The notes under the pieces are model-generated. The model ran no database searches, was not told the origin of the DNA, and saw only the letters and a program-made list of their open reading frames with translations. From Dehalococcoidales bacterium (GTDB lineage: Bacteria; Chloroflexota; Dehalococcoidia; Dehalococcoidales; RBG-16-60-22), in assembly GCA_034414775.1 (NCBI GenBank), contig DAOULX010000008.1, positions 659-64,658 on the forward strand: a stretch of DNA of 64,000 nucleotides, in the 5' to 3' direction. The position numbers and the translations under genes are program-made. Positions 41,832-62,658 of the stretch are shown here, one piece after another (the stretch's first letter is position 1; each line of letters starts with the position of its first letter).

Positions 41832-41948
41832 CCTTTGTCATCCTGAGCACCCTTTGTCATCATGAGCGGAGCGAAGGATCTCGGGGCGTGGTGGATCCAA
41901 ACTCCCCACCCCGAGATTCTTCGGTCGCTACGCTCCCTCAGAATAACA
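41832..41948. repeat. inverted pair of TGTCATYCTGAG-type repeat modules
   Basis: tgtcatcctgagc (41836) and tgtcatcatgagcggagcgaaggatctcggggcgtggtgg (41856-41894) face ccccaccccgagattcttcggtcgctacgctccctcagaataaca (41904-41948). Confidence 0.8.
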
Positions 41949-41955
41949 TGGGCGT

Positions 41956-45029: not shown

Positions 45030-48000
45030 TTACCGGAAATCCTTCGAAGCCGGCACCTTGTCCAAAGCAGTAAACGGCTCCACCCGCGTGATGACGAGGT
45101 TGCAGGTCCCCTCCCGCCGGGTGAGACGCCCGCTGACCACCAGGAACGGCATCTTGAACTTGGGCTCGTGGCGCCCGTAGACCTTGGGGAAGACCATGCA
45201 GGGGATGTGCCCGAACTCGTCCTCCAGGGTGATGAAGGTCACCTTGCCCTGCGGCCGCTGCCGGCGGATGACCATCCCGGCCGTCGTCACCGGGGCGCCG
45301 TCCCCGAGCCGCGCAATGTCACGGCTGGTGCGCACTTCCGGCCCGAAACCGGGCCGCAGCCGGGACATGATGTGCCCGGCGGGAAAGAGGCTGAGGACGC
45401 TGTACTCTTCTTTCATGCGCTCCCACTCGCCGGGGGCCTCCAGCTCCACCAGGTCCTGCGCGACGGGCAGGGGAAGGGGCAGCTGGGAGTTGACCGGCCG
45501 GTAGCGCAGGCCGATCTCCCATTTGACCTTGCGGCGGTTCGACTCCAGGCCGTCGAAGGCCCCGGCGCCGGCCAGGTTGAGGGCGACCTCTTCCAGCACG
45601 CCGGTGCGCTCCAGGAAGTCCCCGATGCCGCGGAACTCGCCGTTTTCACGCGCCTTTTCGATGGCCTCGGCGGCGGCCCCACCCAGCCCCAGGACGTTGA
45701 GGAAACCCAGGCGCAGGGCGGCGTGAATAAATCCCTCTCTAGCTCTCCCCTTACGAAGGGGAGAGGATGGGCCTTCAAGCCCTTCTTTTGATTTAGCACC
45801 ATCTGTTTCCCTCCTTCGTAAGGAGGGATTAAGGGAGAATTCCTCAACTCTCCCCCTTCCGTAAAGGGGGATTAAGGGGGATTTTCCCCCTCCTCTCCCA
45901 ACATCCGACTGGATTCCAGCTTTCGCTGGAATGACACTAAACGAACTGTCATTCTGAGGGAGCGCCGCGACCGAAGAATCCCGGAGAGAGGCGGTACACT
46001 CCCCACCCCGAGATCCTTCGCGGAGTTTACCCTGAGTGTAGCCGAAGGGCTCAGGATGACAACTATGGAGCTCAGGATAACAAAAAAGGGAATCGGGATG
46101 ACATTCTTCTATAACGCACTTGGCCCGGCTCTTGTTTATATCCGGATTCAGCACCCGTATCCCGTGCCGTCGGGCGTCCTCCTTGAGTGTCTCCAGGTTA
46201 TAGAAGCCCATCGGCTGCTGGTTGAAGATGGCCACGAAGAACTCCAGCGGGTAATGGTACTTCATCCAGGCCGCCTGGTAGGCCGTCACCCCGAAGGCGA
46301 AGGCGTGCGATTCCGGGAACATGTACTGCCCGTTGAACTTCTTAAAGACCTTTTCGGCCGATGCCTCGTCGACGCCTTTTTCGGCGGCCCCGGCGAGGAA
46401 TTTTTGCCGGTAGTCCTCGATGAGCGCCTCGTTGTGCTTTCTGCCGAAGGCGCGGCGCAGCCGGTCCGCCTCGCTGGGCGAAAAGCCGGCCACGTCGATA
46501 GCGAGCTGGTTGACCTGGTCCTGAAAGAGGACGATGCCCAGGGTGCGCTCCAGGGCCCGCCGCTCCAGCGGGTGGTCGTAGGTGACTGGCTTGCGCCCGG
46601 TGCGCCGGGACAGGTACTCGTGCACGCCGTGGTTAACGCCCACCCCCGGCCGCACCGCCCCCACCTCGTGGGCCATGTCCAGCAGGTTGCGCGGCCGCAG
46701 CCGGGTGATGGTCTGCATCTGAGCGGCCGATTCCACCTGGAAGATGCCGATGGTGTCCCCACGGCAGAGCATGTCGTAGACGTCATTGTCCTCGAAGTCG
46801 ATGCGGGAGAGGTCGATGCGGCGGCCGGTGCGCTCTTTGATAAGGCCGACGGCCTCCTGCATCTGGGAAAGGGCCCCCAGGGCCAGGAAATCGATCTTGA
46901 CGAAACCGGCGTCATCGATGCTGTCCTTGTCCCACTGGCAGACGTAGCGGCCCTCGATGGCGCCCCGCTGCACCGGCACGATGTCGATGAGGGGGCTGGA
47001 CGAGAGAATCATGCCGCCGGGGTGCTGGCCCAGGTACTTGGGAAAGCCGTCCAGCTCGGCGGCGAGGGCAATCAGGTCCCGCCAGACCGGGGCGTCCGTC
47101 CGGTCCTTAAAAGCGGGTATCTTCTTCATCTTTTCTTCGAGCTTGCGGGCGCTGCCCCAGTCCACGTTTTTGGCAAGCTGGTCGACCTCCGGCTCCGGCA
47201 GGCCCAGCGCCTTACCGAGGTCGCGCACGGCCCCCTTGACCATGTAGGTATTGATGGTGCCGGTCAGGGCAGCGTGCCGCCAGCCCCATTTCTCGTGGGT
47301 GCGCAGGATGAGGTCCTCGCGGATGCTGCGGGGAAAATCGAGGTCGATGTCCGGCACGTTGGTCATGACGTCCTCGGGAAGGAACCTCTCCAGCGAGAGG
47401 CGGTACTGGAGGGGGTCGATGTGCGAGAGGCCGATGAGGTAGCCGACCAGCAGTGCCACCGAGGAGCCGCGCCCCCGCCCCGGCGGGGCCTCCTCGAGGG
47501 TCAGGGAGGGGTCGCTGAGCCCCTGCTCGATCATGACCTCCCGCCCCAGATTGATGACCTCGTGGTACATCAGCAGGAAGCCGGCCAGGTTATAGCGGTT
47601 AATCAGACGGAACTCCTCGTCGAGGCGAGCGCGCACGGCCGGGGTGACGGAGCCGTAGCGCCGCACGGCCGCCTCCGCGCAGAGCTTTTCCAGGTAGCTC
47701 TCCGGGGTGAAGCCTTCCGGCACGGGGTAGTCCGGAAAGGTGTAATCCAGGTTCCGCGTCAGGTCGAACGAGCACCTCCCGGCGATTTCCACGGTATTGG
47801 CCAGGGCCTCCGGGCAGTCGCGAAAGAGCTCCTCCATCTCCGAGATAGGCCGCAGGTAGAACTCGGAGTTGGGGCGCCTTTCCCGGTGCGTCTCCTCAAG
47901 ACTCTTGCACTCTTTAATGGCGACCAGACAGTCCTGGAGACGGTGGCGCTCGCGGACGTGGTAGTGGACGTTGCCGGTAGCGGCCACCCGGGCGCCGGTC

Positions 48001-48566
48001 TCCCGGGCCAGCCCCAGCAGGGCCAGGTTGCGGGCCGTATCCCCGTAGACCAGGTTCTGCTGCAGCTCGATGTAGTAGCTGTCCGTCCCGAACCAGTCCA
48101 GATACCGACGGACAAGCTCCCTGGCCGCGTCCGGGGGCGCCTTGCCGATTAACTGCGCCAACTCGCCTTTCGGGCAGCCGGACAGGGCGATGAGGCCTTC
48201 CGCGTGGGCGGGGAGGAGGGCGGAATCGAGCTCGGGCTCGTAGCGCTCGCCGGAGGCATGGGCGGCGGTGATGAGACGGCAGAGGTTGCGGTAGCCCCGG
48301 CTGTCCTTCACCAGCAGGGTCAGGTGGCCGCCGCCTTTGAGGGTCATCTCCGTGCCGATGATGCCGGGCACCTCCAGGGAGCGGGCCAGCCGGGCGAAGC
48401 GCATCGCCCCGCAGAGGTTATCATGGTCGGTGACGGCCAGGGCGCGGTAGCACAGGTCTTTGGCGCGCGCCAGCAGCTCCTCCAGCGACGAAGCGCCGTC
48501 GTGGAAGGAGTAGTAGCTGTGGCAGTGAAGCTCGGCGTAAGGCATGGTTCCAAATCGGTCTGTCAT
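45030..48566 (-). CDS. dnaE2: error-prone DNA polymerase III alpha-type subunit DnaE2 (ImuC) carrying a repeat-derived in-frame insertion
   Basis: It has the PHP N-terminus YAELHCHSYYSFHDGASSLEELL..ALAVTDHDNLCG and is collinear with the DnaE body. The first ATG (48566) lies inside a repeat module, so the ATG at 48545 (MPYAELH) is the more likely start. Confidence 0.85.
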   Translation of the reverse strand: MTDRFGTMPYAELHCHSYYSFHDGASSLEELLARAKDLCYRALAVTDHDNLCGAMRFARLARSLEVPGIIGTEMTLKGGGHLTLLVKDSRGYRNLCRLITAAHASGERYEPELDSALLPAHAEGLIALSGCPKGELAQLIGKAPPDAARELVRRYLDWFGTDSYYIELQQNLVYGDTARNLALLGLARETGARVAATGNVHYHVRERHRLQDCLVAIKECKSLEETHRERRPNSEFYLRPISEMEELFRDCPEALANTVEIAGRCSFDLTRNLDYTFPDYPVPEGFTPESYLEKLCAEAAVRRYGSVTPAVRARLDEEFRLINRYNLAGFLLMYHEVINLGREVMIEQGLSDPSLTLEEAPPGRGRGSSVALLVGYLIGLSHIDPLQYRLSLERFLPEDVMTNVPDIDLDFPRSIREDLILRTHEKWGWRHAALTGTINTYMVKGAVRDLGKALGLPEPEVDQLAKNVDWGSARKLEEKMKKIPAFKDRTDAPVWRDLIALAAELDGFPKYLGQHPGGMILSSSPLIDIVPVQRGAIEGRYVCQWDKDSIDDAGFVKIDFLALGALSQMQEAVGLIKERTGRRIDLSRIDFEDNDVYDMLCRGDTIGIFQVESAAQMQTITRLRPRNLLDMAHEVGAVRPGVGVNHGVHEYLSRRTGRKPVTYDHPLERRALERTLGIVLFQDQVNQLAIDVAGFSPSEADRLRRAFGRKHNEALIEDYRQKFLAGAAEKGVDEASAEKVFKKFNGQYMFPESHAFAFGVTAYQAAWMKYHYPLEFFVAIFNQQPMGFYNLETLKEDARRHGIRVLNPDINKSRAKCVIEECHPDSLFCYPELHSCHPEPFGYTQGKLREGSRGGECTASLRDSSVAALPQNDSSFSVIPAKAGIQSDVGRGGGKSPLIPLYGRGRVEEFSLNPSLRRRETDGAKSKEGLEGPSSPLRKGRAREGFIHAALRLGFLNVLGLGGAAAEAIEKARENGEFRGIGDFLERTGVLEEVALNLAGAGAFDGLESNRRKVKWEIGLRYRPVNSQLPLPLPVAQDLVELEAPGEWERMKEEYSVLSLFPAGHIMSRLRPGFGPEVRTSRDIARLGDGAPVTTAGMVIRRQRPQGKVTFITLEDEFGHIPCMVFPKVYGRHEPKFKMPFLVVSGRLTRREGTCNLVITRVEPFTALDKVPASKDFR
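45731..46103. repeat. composite block of hairpin / TGTCATYCTGAG modules lying inside the dnaE2 reading frame
   Basis: Hairpins lie at 45743-45765, 45808-45828, 45851-45871 and 45876-45890. The GGAATCCAG-type hairpin lies at 45909-45936. tgtcattctgagggagcgccgcgaccgaagaatc starts at 45947, its inverted partner ends at 46061, and further heads lie at 46066-46080 and 46088-46103. Confidence 0.8.
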
Positions 48567-48649
48567 TCCGAGCGATAGCGAAGAATCTCGGAGAGGGGCG
48601 GCGGAAAAGTCCCACCGCCCCGGGACCCTTCGCTCCGCTCAGGGTGACA
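48561..48649. repeat. inverted pair of TGTCATYCTGAG-type repeat modules in the dnaE2 5' region
   Basis: tgtcattccgagcgatagcgaagaatctcggagaggggcggcgg faces cccaccgccccgggacccttcgctccgctcagggtgaca. Confidence 0.8.
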
Positions 48650-48717
48650 ACGAAAAACGGTTTTTAATTTTAAGCTATGGCTTTAAGCTCATTCAGGATT
48701 TAGAGCTTAGAACTTCC

Positions 48718-49002
48718 CTAATAATCCTGTTGATACCACTCCCCGCTGATAATGTCCTTGTAAAGCACCGCCCGGTGCCCGGAGGCGAGGCGGACACTGT
48801 AATAGAGGCGCGCCACCGGCTCGCGGCGCCACCACTCGTCGTCGATGCGCCAGCAGTCCTTGATGTCCGTCACGACCTGACGCCGCTTTGCCCGGACGGC
48901 GGCCGGCAGCCCTTCGGCGTCTTCCTCGACGTGCACCGGCTCCGGGGCATTTACCGGTTTGCTGGCGTCAGCGCGTAGCGTCTCTCCGGTATCCGGGACC
49001 AC
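48718..49002 (-). CDS. small Trp-rich conserved-looking protein between imuB and dnaE2 (function unknown)
   Basis: 94 aa containing CWRIDDEWWRREPVARLYYSVRLASGHRAVLYKDIISGEWYQQ. The ATG start overlaps the imuB 3' end by 52 nt. An alternative GTG at 48936, after GGAG, would avoid the overlap. Confidence 0.55.
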   Translation of the reverse strand: MVPDTGETLRADASKPVNAPEPVHVEEDAEGLPAAVRAKRRQVVTDIKDCWRIDDEWWRREPVARLYYSVRLASGHRAVLYKDIISGEWYQQDY

Positions 49003-50129
49003 GGCTCGACCTCCTTGACCGTGAACACCTGGGGATTGCCCAGCCGGAACTCAAGCTGGCGGATATCGTCCATCAGGTGGTCTTTGGCCCTGACCCTGGA
49101 GAACAGGCTGCGCTGCCGTCCCCGCGGGTAGCCCAGGCCGGTGATCCGCAGGCCCACCTGCTCCACGGGGCCGGGCTGGGGATAGCTCTCCAGTACCCGC
49201 TTGATGCGGTTAACGGCGGCCCGGATATCCATGGCCGGCTCCTTGAACTGGATGCCCCTCTCCCAGTGCTCCGCCCCCCAGGTACGCGTCCACAGGGTCA
49301 GGCCACGGATACCCCTCCCCCGGGAGCCGTCCCGCGCCATGGCCTTGACGAGAAGATCCTCCACCGCCACCAGGACGGCCTCCAGGGAGACGGTCACCGA
49401 GGTCAACGCGGTGCTCTCCTCGATGGTCTCCTCGCCGCCGCGGGGATACAGCGGCGTGTCGTCTTCGCCCCGCGCCAGCGCCGCTATCCTCCGGCCCTCC
49501 TCGCCGAACTGGGACTGGAGGGGGCCGGGGGCCAGGGCCGCCAGCTGCCCCAGGGTATTTATCCCGAAATCGTGCAGGCGGTCTTTAATCCTGATGGAGA
49601 CGGGCAGGACGTCGCAGGGCAACTCCCGGAGGAAATCCCCCGCCTCCCCCGCCAGTATCCGGTGCCCGCCGGGAGGGCCGCGGCGGGTGGCCAGATACGC
49701 CAGGAACTTGTTCCCGGCAATCCCCAGGCAGGGGGAGAAGATATCGGGTACGGCTTCCCTCATCGCCGCCAGCAGGGCGTCATCATCCGGGTAGATAAGC
49801 TGGAGCCCGTCCACGCCGACGTAGGCACAGCCCAGCTCGTCGCCTTCCACCAGAGGGCTCCTCTCTTCCAGCGCGTCCAGTATCTCATCGAAGGCGGACC
49901 AGTAGCGGGGCATATCGGCGGGGAGCAGTCGGGCCTCCCCATAGCGGGCCAGGGCCTGCTGGAGGGGCATGCCGGATTGCAGGCCTTCCAGCCCGGGGGA
50001 GTAGTCCAAGACGAGCTTCTGCGAGCCCGCGGCGGCGGTTATCACCGCCGGGCGGCCCTGGATATCCGGTTGCTTCCGGACCTCGCACATGAGGGGAAAA
50101 TGCGGCAGCAGTATACAGAGTATTCTCAT
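48951..50129 (-). CDS. imuB: ImuB, Y-family-polymerase-like mutasome subunit
   Basis: It begins MRILCILLPHFPLMCEV, where DinB has its catalytic acidic residues, as expected for ImuB. The IMS-like body contains GIAGNKFLAYLA and HDFGINTLGQLAAL. The start at 50129 is preferred over the ORF-track start at 50165. Confidence 0.8.
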   Translation of the reverse strand: MRILCILLPHFPLMCEVRKQPDIQGRPAVITAAAGSQKLVLDYSPGLEGLQSGMPLQQALARYGEARLLPADMPRYWSAFDEILDALEERSPLVEGDELGCAYVGVDGLQLIYPDDDALLAAMREAVPDIFSPCLGIAGNKFLAYLATRRGPPGGHRILAGEAGDFLRELPCDVLPVSIRIKDRLHDFGINTLGQLAALAPGPLQSQFGEEGRRIAALARGEDDTPLYPRGGEETIEESTALTSVTVSLEAVLVAVEDLLVKAMARDGSRGRGIRGLTLWTRTWGAEHWERGIQFKEPAMDIRAAVNRIKRVLESYPQPGPVEQVGLRITGLGYPRGRQRSLFSRVRAKDHLMDDIRQLEFRLGNPQVFTVKEVEPWSRIPERRYALTPANR

Positions 50130-50151
50130 GGTTTCACCCCGGCAAGTAACC

Positions 50152-50181
50152 ATTATATAGAACATTAGTTCTGTTTGTCAA
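50152..50181 (-). promoter_or_regulatory. SOS-type promoter: TTGACA / TATAAT with a Cheo-type LexA box in the spacer
   Basis: On the minus strand, TTGACA (50181-50176) is followed by an 18-nt spacer containing the palindrome AGAAC-ATTA-GTTCT (50159-50172) and then TATAAT (50157-50152). The imuB ATG is at 50129. Confidence 0.65.
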
Positions 50182-62581: not shown

Positions 62582-62658
62582 CGGGGCGTGGCGCAGCATG
62601 GTAGCGCGTCTGAATGGGGTTCAGAAGGTCCCCGGTTCAAATCCGGGCGCCCCGACCA
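62582..62658 (+). tRNA. tRNA-Pro (anticodon GGG), CCA encoded
   Basis: Hand-folded cloverleaf. Acceptor stem CGGGGCG/CGCCCCG, D stem GCGC/GCGC, anticodon stem TCTGA/TCAGA with loop AT-GGG-GT, T arm CCCGG-TTCAAAT-CCGGG, then ACCA. Confidence 0.9.

Follow-up and report, generated by a model that had tools for sequence, protein, structure and literature searches.

An iPolY–ImuB-C–DnaE2 operon of the split-ImuB type with a predicted LexA operator in a Dehalococcoidales bacterium

Genes and promoter of the cassette

The 64,000-nucleotide (nt) stretch of contig DAOULX010000008.1 from a Dehalococcoidales bacterium, called the window here, has a G+C content of 52% and carries three minus-strand genes behind a promoter. 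The first, iPolY (ImuY, or ImuB-like; positions 48951 to 50129), encodes a 392-amino-acid (aa) Y-family polymerase homolog that is predicted to be inactive. It is followed by imuB-C (48718 to 49002), which begins with GTG and encodes a 94-aa protein, and by dnaE2 (45030 to 48566), a gene for an error-prone C-family polymerase whose longest open reading frame (ORF) comprises 1178 aa. The order iPolY, small ORF, dnaE2 on one strand is found in all 80 related Dehalococcoidia loci that form our synteny sample, wherever their flanks reach. Two more distant members of the family (46 to 52% identity) have the same gene layout.

A preliminary description of this locus suggested that the 94-aa protein could be the missing third component of a mutasome and proposed a profile search with it. 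This search, now performed, leads to a known domain instead. The close relatives of the small ORF number more than 200 and are 92 to 97 aa long. The family follows the pattern MV...(L)RP(L)NxPxPVxVE...G.P..V...WRIDDEWWR..P.SR.YY.V.L..G....L..DL..G.WY.Q, and comprises at least 1296 clusters at 50% identity (exhaustive hidden Markov model search) and at least 4962 clusters at 90% identity. Relatives are present in 589 species-level genomes, nearly all from Dehalococcoidia. The small ORF is real, conserved, and strictly tied to the polymerase pair.

The first lead to its identity was a weak match to DUF6504 (PF20114) in one of 30 close relatives; among diverse relatives, 14 of 44 match. DUF6504 is the C-terminal domain of canonical ImuB and occupies aa 429 to 503 of the 507-aa, plasmid-encoded ImuB of Bosea, whose gene lies between dnaE2 and a gene that matches the NCBIfam model for ImuA (annotated as 'damage-inducible protein'). 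The profile of the small-ORF family aligns to aa 413 to 503 of this Bosea ImuB (E value 1.4e-4) and to aa 411 to 483 of Shinella ImuB (E value 2e-5). An hhalign comparison of the family profile with one built from the C-termini of 26 canonical ImuB proteins gave a probability of 95.1% and an E value of 3.4e-8 over 95 columns, which is the whole protein. In BLASTP comparisons, the 94-aa protein is 49% identical to ADJ25744 from Dehalogenimonas lykanthroporepellens (E value 2e-33) and 43% identical to ACZ39476 from Sphaerobacter thermophilus (E value 2e-26). Both of these proteins are named 'ImuB-C' in the supplement of PMC12926913. Judged by this homology, the 94-aa protein is the ImuB-C domain (DUF6504), split off from ImuB. 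Thus, the 94-aa 'hypothetical protein' of hundreds of Dehalococcoidia genomes should be named ImuB-C (DUF6504).

An AlphaFold2 model of the protein (predicted local distance difference test score, 79.9) has a six-strand β domain at aa 22 to 92, preceded by a disordered N-terminal arm of about 20 residues. A Foldseek search of the Protein Data Bank (PDB) with this model returned no match at an E value below 1, which agrees with the published remark that ImuB-C is a β-barrel without close structural relatives (PMC12926913). Searching PDB sequences with the family profile gave only noise (best E value 0.75). Neither the small ORF nor 74 of its relatives matches the Peptidase S24 or YolD families, unlike the UmuD- and YolD-type subunits of Pol V-like mutasomes. 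Two relatives carry insertions. The N-terminal arm is triplicated in tandem in P0029, where …TGKTLRSDAYRPVN… occurs three times, and P0122 has an insert of approximately 100 aa with an IPAKAGIH-type repeat between the arm and the β domain. Thus, the arm and linker of ImuB-C appear to tolerate insertions.

The iPolY gene starts at the ATG at 50129 (MRILCIL), and a longer ORF, from 50165, begins inside the promoter. Its product matches the Pfam family IMS (E value 7.9e-13), and also DNA polymerase IV models at scores well under their cut-offs. In an alignment with Mycobacterium smegmatis DinB1, the catalytic residues D9, D107, and E108 correspond to L7, G100, and C101 of iPolY, and the conserved D11 corresponds to P9. 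None of 66 orthologs has an acidic residue at position 7 or 9, and one has such a residue (E) at position 100. Because the catalytic carboxylates are replaced in iPolY and its orthologs, the protein is predicted to be a catalytically inactive scaffold, and the gene upstream of imuB-C should be annotated as an inactive ImuY/ImuB-like scaffold rather than as DNA polymerase IV.

Three elements follow one another toward the iPolY C-terminus. A β-clamp-binding-like motif, QRSLF (aa 339 to 343; 49101 to 49115), is kept as Q(K/R)SLF in orthologs and occupies the place of QLPLW in M. smegmatis ImuB (PMC11791113). Next is a candidate RecA-NT-like motif, RVRAKDHLMDDIRQLEFRLGNPQVFTVK (aa 345 to 372; 49014 to 49097). 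It has the same position as the RecA-NT segment of Dehalogenimonas iPolY (PMC6511836), with which it shares 14 of 28 residues by our own count. The protein ends 20 residues past this segment with a tail, EVEPWSRIPERRYALTPANR (48954 to 49013), that is nearly invariant among the 66 orthologs, includes the invariant stretch EVEPWSRIPERRYAL, and is co-encoded with the 5' end of imuB-C. The ImuB-C domain follows as a separate ORF in another frame.

The third gene product has the PHP, DNA_pol3_alpha, finger, HHH_6, and OB domains. It matches the 'error-prone DNA polymerase' model NF004225 with an E value of 2.2e-264 and a score of 880, below the curated cut-off of 939; the protein holds a 128-aa insert. 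It is 74 to 75% identical to Dehalogenimonas DnaE2, which has been classed as DnaE2X (PMC12926913), and this identity suggests that the DnaE2 of the window also belongs to the DnaE2X group. The start of dnaE2 is ambiguous because similarity to orthologs begins at residue 7 to 10 of the longest ORF. Since homology begins there, the ATG at 48545 (MPYAELHCH...) is the most likely start codon.

The promoter is a perfect sigma-70 type that scored 12 of 12 in a promoter scan, with -35 hexamer TTGACA at 50176 to 50181, which is kept in orthologous loci, and -10 hexamer TATAAT at 50152 to 50157, separated by an 18-nt spacer. Read on the minus strand, the spacer contains the palindrome AGAACTAATGTTCT (50159 to 50172), as the preliminary description had stated. 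Its GAAC-N4-GTTC core is of the Cheo-box type, and the LexA protein of Dehalococcoides ethenogenes reportedly binds GAAC-N4-GTTC.

This core has a single match in the window, where 0.65 are expected by count, so its occurrence is not above chance. The evidence for function comes from comparison. Of the 64 orthologous loci with a long enough region upstream of iPolY, 56 have the exact core no more than 150 nt upstream of the iPolY start, and five more have a version with one mismatch. As in the window, the box of the 56 loci is nearly always placed in the promoter spacer, with TTGACA on one side and a TATAAT-like hexamer on the other. This conservation is a clear phylogenetic footprint. Because the box is kept while its flanks have diverged, the data support a LexA operator that occludes the promoter. 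The proposed Cheo-type LexA box ahead of the cassette is thus conserved, and LexA binding and SOS (LexA/RecA) control of the cassette are predicted from the operator-like box together with the literature.

Two Dehalogenimonas loci and one other (L054, L077, and L055) lack a box in the 150 nt upstream of iPolY. In L054, from Dehalogenimonas, the sole box is at L054:4533-4544, approximately 330 nt upstream of that start. Because these loci lack a near box, and because lexA is absent from the flanks although it is listed for D. lykanthroporepellens, the placement of promoter and regulator differs within the class.

The overlap of iPolY with imuB-C

The imuB-C gene overlaps the 3' end of iPolY by 52 nt (49002 down to 48951) in frame -1 relative to iPolY. 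The overlap is 52 nt long in 78 of the 80 loci and 49 nt long in the other two, and the frame is always -1. A start codon is present at the homologous position in every locus (ATG in 50, GTG in 29, TTG in one, and CTG in none). Thus, the overlap length given in the preliminary description is correct, whereas the ATG start given there is a GTG, at 49002, in this genome.

The start codon arises from the wobble base of a proline codon of iPolY and the TGG that follows it. This proline codon is CCA in 63% of loci and CCC in 0%, whereas in these genes CCA makes up 7% and CCC 36% of the proline codons. The skew toward CCA and away from CCC implies that the start codon is under selection. A Shine-Dalgarno sequence, AAGGAGG (49010 to 49016), is located 7 nt upstream of the start, inside the iPolY codons for K-E-V. 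AAGGAGG or AAGGA is found in 64 of 80 loci, with AAGGAGG or AAGGAAG 7 to 8 nt upstream of the start. Variability at wobble positions tracks the iPolY frame throughout the overlap and changes to the small-ORF frame right after the iPolY stop codon. This signal suggests that the iPolY tail dictates the sequence of the disordered ImuB-C arm.

With its own initiation signals and with no slippery heptamer seen by eye, imuB-C most plausibly starts independently, from its own start codon and Shine-Dalgarno sequence, and is probably coupled to iPolY translation. We suggest tentatively, as a possibility we hold with some doubt, that the 52-nt, -1 overlap is a functional device that couples ImuB-C to iPolY translation and fixes the ratio of the two proteins, and that it also forms an evolutionary hinge between split and fused ImuB. 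If this is true, the gain or loss of a single base at the overlap would turn a split ImuB into a fused one, as in canonical mutasomes. In a rarer variant of the same idea, occasional frameshifting may yield a fused ImuB. The Sphaerobacter protein pair in the literature is also consistent with this overlap. To our knowledge, the overlap has not been described before, and it constitutes a small new detail.

Proposed function and alternative explanations

No ImuA-like sequence was found in the cassette, in the window, or in 83 related loci when Bosea and Shinella ImuA were used as tblastn queries (E value of 1 or less). As a control, the NF033429 model finds both of these ImuA proteins at about 1e-15. 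The earlier observation that imuA is missing therefore extends to the related loci. Two other candidates were considered as ImuA analogs and rejected: a 273-aa ORF upstream of iPolY in L083 and a 234-aa ORF in L085, neither of which resembles ImuA. The former is just 5' of iPolY (L083:4894-5715; also L084:292-1113), the latter is between imuB-C and dnaE2 (L085:6367-7071), and neither resembles an NCBIfam family. Searches by tblastn with E. coli LexA and D. lykanthroporepellens RecA likewise found no LexA-like or RecA-like sequence in the window or within approximately 6 kilobases of the cassette in the related loci.

The analysis identified the three genes and showed that iPolY has lost its catalytic residues, that the small protein is homologous to ImuB-C, and that synteny, overlap, and operator are conserved. 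On this basis, the three genes very probably form a mutasome for translesion synthesis that is under LexA control and belongs to the split-ImuB type known from the literature, in the order iPolY (ImuY), ImuB-C, DnaE2. LexA binding, the contacts with clamp, RecA, and DnaE2, and the mutagenic function are proposed from the literature. In the absence of damage, LexA would block the promoter by occupying the GAAC-N4-GTTC box in the spacer that separates its -35 and -10 hexamers. On DNA damage, RecA filaments would induce self-cleavage of LexA, and the operon would be transcribed. The dead Y-family polymerase iPolY would then serve as a scaffold, whose QRSLF motif presumably contacts the β clamp and whose RecA-NT-like motif would hold RecA, filling the place of ImuA in canonical ImuA-ImuB-DnaE2. 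The separately encoded ImuB-C β-barrel, probably translated in a coupled manner from its own start codon and Shine-Dalgarno sequence inside the last 52 nt of iPolY, would bridge iPolY and the PHP domain of DnaE2, which would carry out error-prone synthesis.

Several points weigh against this interpretation. The 94-aa protein of the window itself has no direct match in Pfam or NCBIfam, and its homology is argued from profiles and from published relatives. When the C-terminus of iPolY was aligned pairwise with the N-terminus of E. coli RecA, 484 of 2000 shuffles equaled or exceeded the score, and the RecA-NT assignment follows from position and orthology only. Because lexA and recA are missing from the window and from the related loci, the regulator and the fourth subunit are only presumed. 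Substitutions in the overlap follow the iPolY frame only, and the first 17 residues of ImuB-C consequently have no coding signature of their own. Even for Deinococcus, genetic work has yet to demonstrate that ImuB-C is needed (PMC8072749).

Three other explanations concern the small ORF. The absence of imuA from cassette, window, and related loci, and the lack of a direct family match for the 94-aa ORF, might mean that its product is a lineage-specific, hitherto unknown replacement for ImuA. However, the protein is homologous over its full length to ImuB's C-terminal domain and to published standalone ImuB-C proteins, and its model is an all-β domain of 70 residues rather than a RecA fold. Moreover, canonical systems hold both ImuA and ImuB-C, so the two do not substitute for each other, and iPolY retains a candidate RecA-NT-like motif whose proposed partner is RecA. 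Published models place RecA in the position of ImuA (PMC6511836, PMC12926913), and we consider a replacement by the 94-aa protein to be very improbable.

The other two explanations concern the overlap itself. Its constant -1 frame and nearly constant length would fit programmed -1 ribosomal frameshifting that joined iPolY and the small ORF into a full-length ImuB, and such a fusion would restore the canonical order of ImuB domains. We rejected this idea, which now seems very improbable: no slippery heptamer of the form X XXY YYZ was seen by eye in the iPolY frame of the overlap, whether the sequence read was that of the window or the locus consensus; the start codon and Shine-Dalgarno sequence of the small ORF are selectively kept, although a frameshift fusion would not require them; and in-frame stop codons occur as near as 3 nt upstream of the small-ORF start. 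A little less improbable, yet still unlikely, is that the small protein begins past the overlap, at the GTG at 48936 mentioned in the preliminary description as avoiding the overlap or at a nearby codon, and that the overlap is an annotation artifact. The confinement of wobble variation in the overlap to the iPolY frame and the predicted disorder of residues 1 to 20 fit this proposal. However, of 77 loci, only 16 have a start-type codon at codon 23 and only 38 have one at codon 25, whereas the upstream start is present in all 80 loci with a strong codon bias toward ATG. In addition, the later candidate starts, including the GTG at 48936, lie past the invariant residues N18 and P20, and the hhalign match to canonical ImuB already includes the RPLNxP segment. 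We therefore retain the reading of imuB-C as an independently initiated part of a split-ImuB mutasome.

Insertions, neighboring genes, and comparison with known systems

Repeat elements have entered the operon at two sites. A palindromic element that forms a long hairpin (GTCAYCNTGAGCGGAGCGAAGG ... CCGAGATTCTTCG; 48568 to 48642, minus strand) resides in the 151-nt spacer between imuB-C and dnaE2, which folds at -65 kcal/mol (z-score -5.06). A second copy is found at approximately 41836 to 41950. The end of the element provides the ATG at 48566 of the longest dnaE2 ORF. In many orthologous loci the gap between imuB-C and dnaE2 is only about 10 nt, and the element is an insertion rather than a conserved constituent of the operon. 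The 128-aa insert in DnaE2 (aa 822 to 949; 45720 to 46103) is in frame, is located between the finger region and the HhH domain, and is repeat-like (for example, VIPAKAGIQ and PLRKGRAREGF), with an inverted repeat at 45735 to 45764 and 45808 to 45837. The insert is absent in L012 and L054, and different inserts of 33 to 130 aa are present at the same site in L001, L014, and L044. This variety suggests that the site is a hot spot that tolerates in-frame repeat elements.

The neighbors of the cassette encode transketolase halves, dehydrogenases, a glyoxalase-family protein, a small membrane protein, and a glycine-betaine-type ATP-binding cassette (ABC) transporter. Two long plus-strand ORFs, one of 698 aa (46056 to 48152) opposite dnaE2 and one of 426 aa (48888 to 50168) opposite iPolY, are regarded as a side effect of codon composition in the genes that they oppose rather than as genes of their own. 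A transfer RNA gene at 62582 to 62655 (plus strand) is the sole Rfam match in the window.

Systems of this type have already been published, including for Dehalococcoidia, and the 94-aa protein is no new component. Aravind et al. 2013 (PMC3765255) defined ImuB-C and reported that it also occurs by itself, in operons that contain DnaE2 and an inactive DinB. Timinskas & Venclovas 2019 (PMC6511836) described operons of inactive PolY, standalone ImuB-C, and DnaE2 in genomes with no imuA anywhere, and suggested that RecA, rather than ImuA, is the partner of the RecA-NT motif. A 2026 study in Nucleic Acids Research (PMC12926913) refers to a 'DnaE2X-iPolY-ImuBC-RecA system', calls iPolY and ImuB-C 'a split ImuB', and presents AlphaFold models of complexes, a Dehalogenimonas one among them; for the mycobacterial mutasome, its model has ImuB-C touching the PHP domain of DnaE2.

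The additions made here are modest. They comprise the breadth of the cassette in Dehalococcoidia, the conserved -1 overlap with its selected initiation signals, the invariant iPolY tail, and the operator embedded in the promoter. Our survey indicates that an SOS-type mutagenesis cassette is widespread in Dehalococcoidia and keeps a predicted Cheo-type LexA box in a consensus promoter. Beyond correct annotation, the importance of these findings is small.

The closest described relative is the operon of D. lykanthroporepellens BL-DC-9 (ADJ25743/ADJ25744/ADJ25745), a member of the same class. It has these three genes in identical order and lacks ImuA. It is entered in Table S4 of PMC6511836 as 'iPolY->ImuB-C->DnaE2', with RecA-NT segment EVRSSDKLESDIQQLELRMGTPPLFRVE and tail EVEPWSRIPERRYTLIPLGR. 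Both are clearly orthologous to those of the window protein; the tail is nearly the same, and the RecA-NT-like segments are homologous. In D. lykanthroporepellens, however, lexA is listed directly upstream of iPolY, whereas the window and the 83 related loci have no lexA in the flanks and the predicted operator is in the iPolY promoter. The repeat-element insertions between imuB-C and dnaE2 and inside DnaE2 are further differences from D. lykanthroporepellens.

The Deinococcus deserti version, which is the only one with genetics, likewise combines an inactive Y-family homolog, a small standalone ImuB-C, and DnaE2 in the absence of imuA. [quoted passage not shown] SOS control, established there, is predicted here. 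D. deserti belongs to another phylum, has lexA inside the operon, and has an ImuB-C annotated with 80 aa, which was first a hypothetical protein and was identified as ImuB-C later (PMC8072749). An operon of Kyrpidia tusciae (Firmicutes; PMC6511836 Fig. 8) also combines an inactive PolY, a standalone ImuB-C, and DnaE2, with RecA proposed in place of ImuA. However, its accessions suggest another gene order, and its iPolY tail is unrelated.

Canonical ImuA-ImuB-DnaE2 systems (ImuABC) of Proteobacteria and Actinobacteria share with the window operon a predicted dead Y-family scaffold with a clamp-binding-like motif, DnaE2, and a homologous ImuB-C. The RecA-NT motif of ImuABC has a candidate counterpart in the iPolY of the window, and SOS control, a feature of ImuABC, is predicted for the window operon. 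In ImuABC, ImuB-C is fused to ImuB (approximately 500 aa) and a RecA-like ImuA is encoded upstream, whereas in the window ImuB is split into two overlapping genes, with an iPolY of 392 aa, and ImuA is absent. The conserved overlap fits the published idea that ImuB arose by the fusion of a Y-family polymerase with a standalone ImuB-C.

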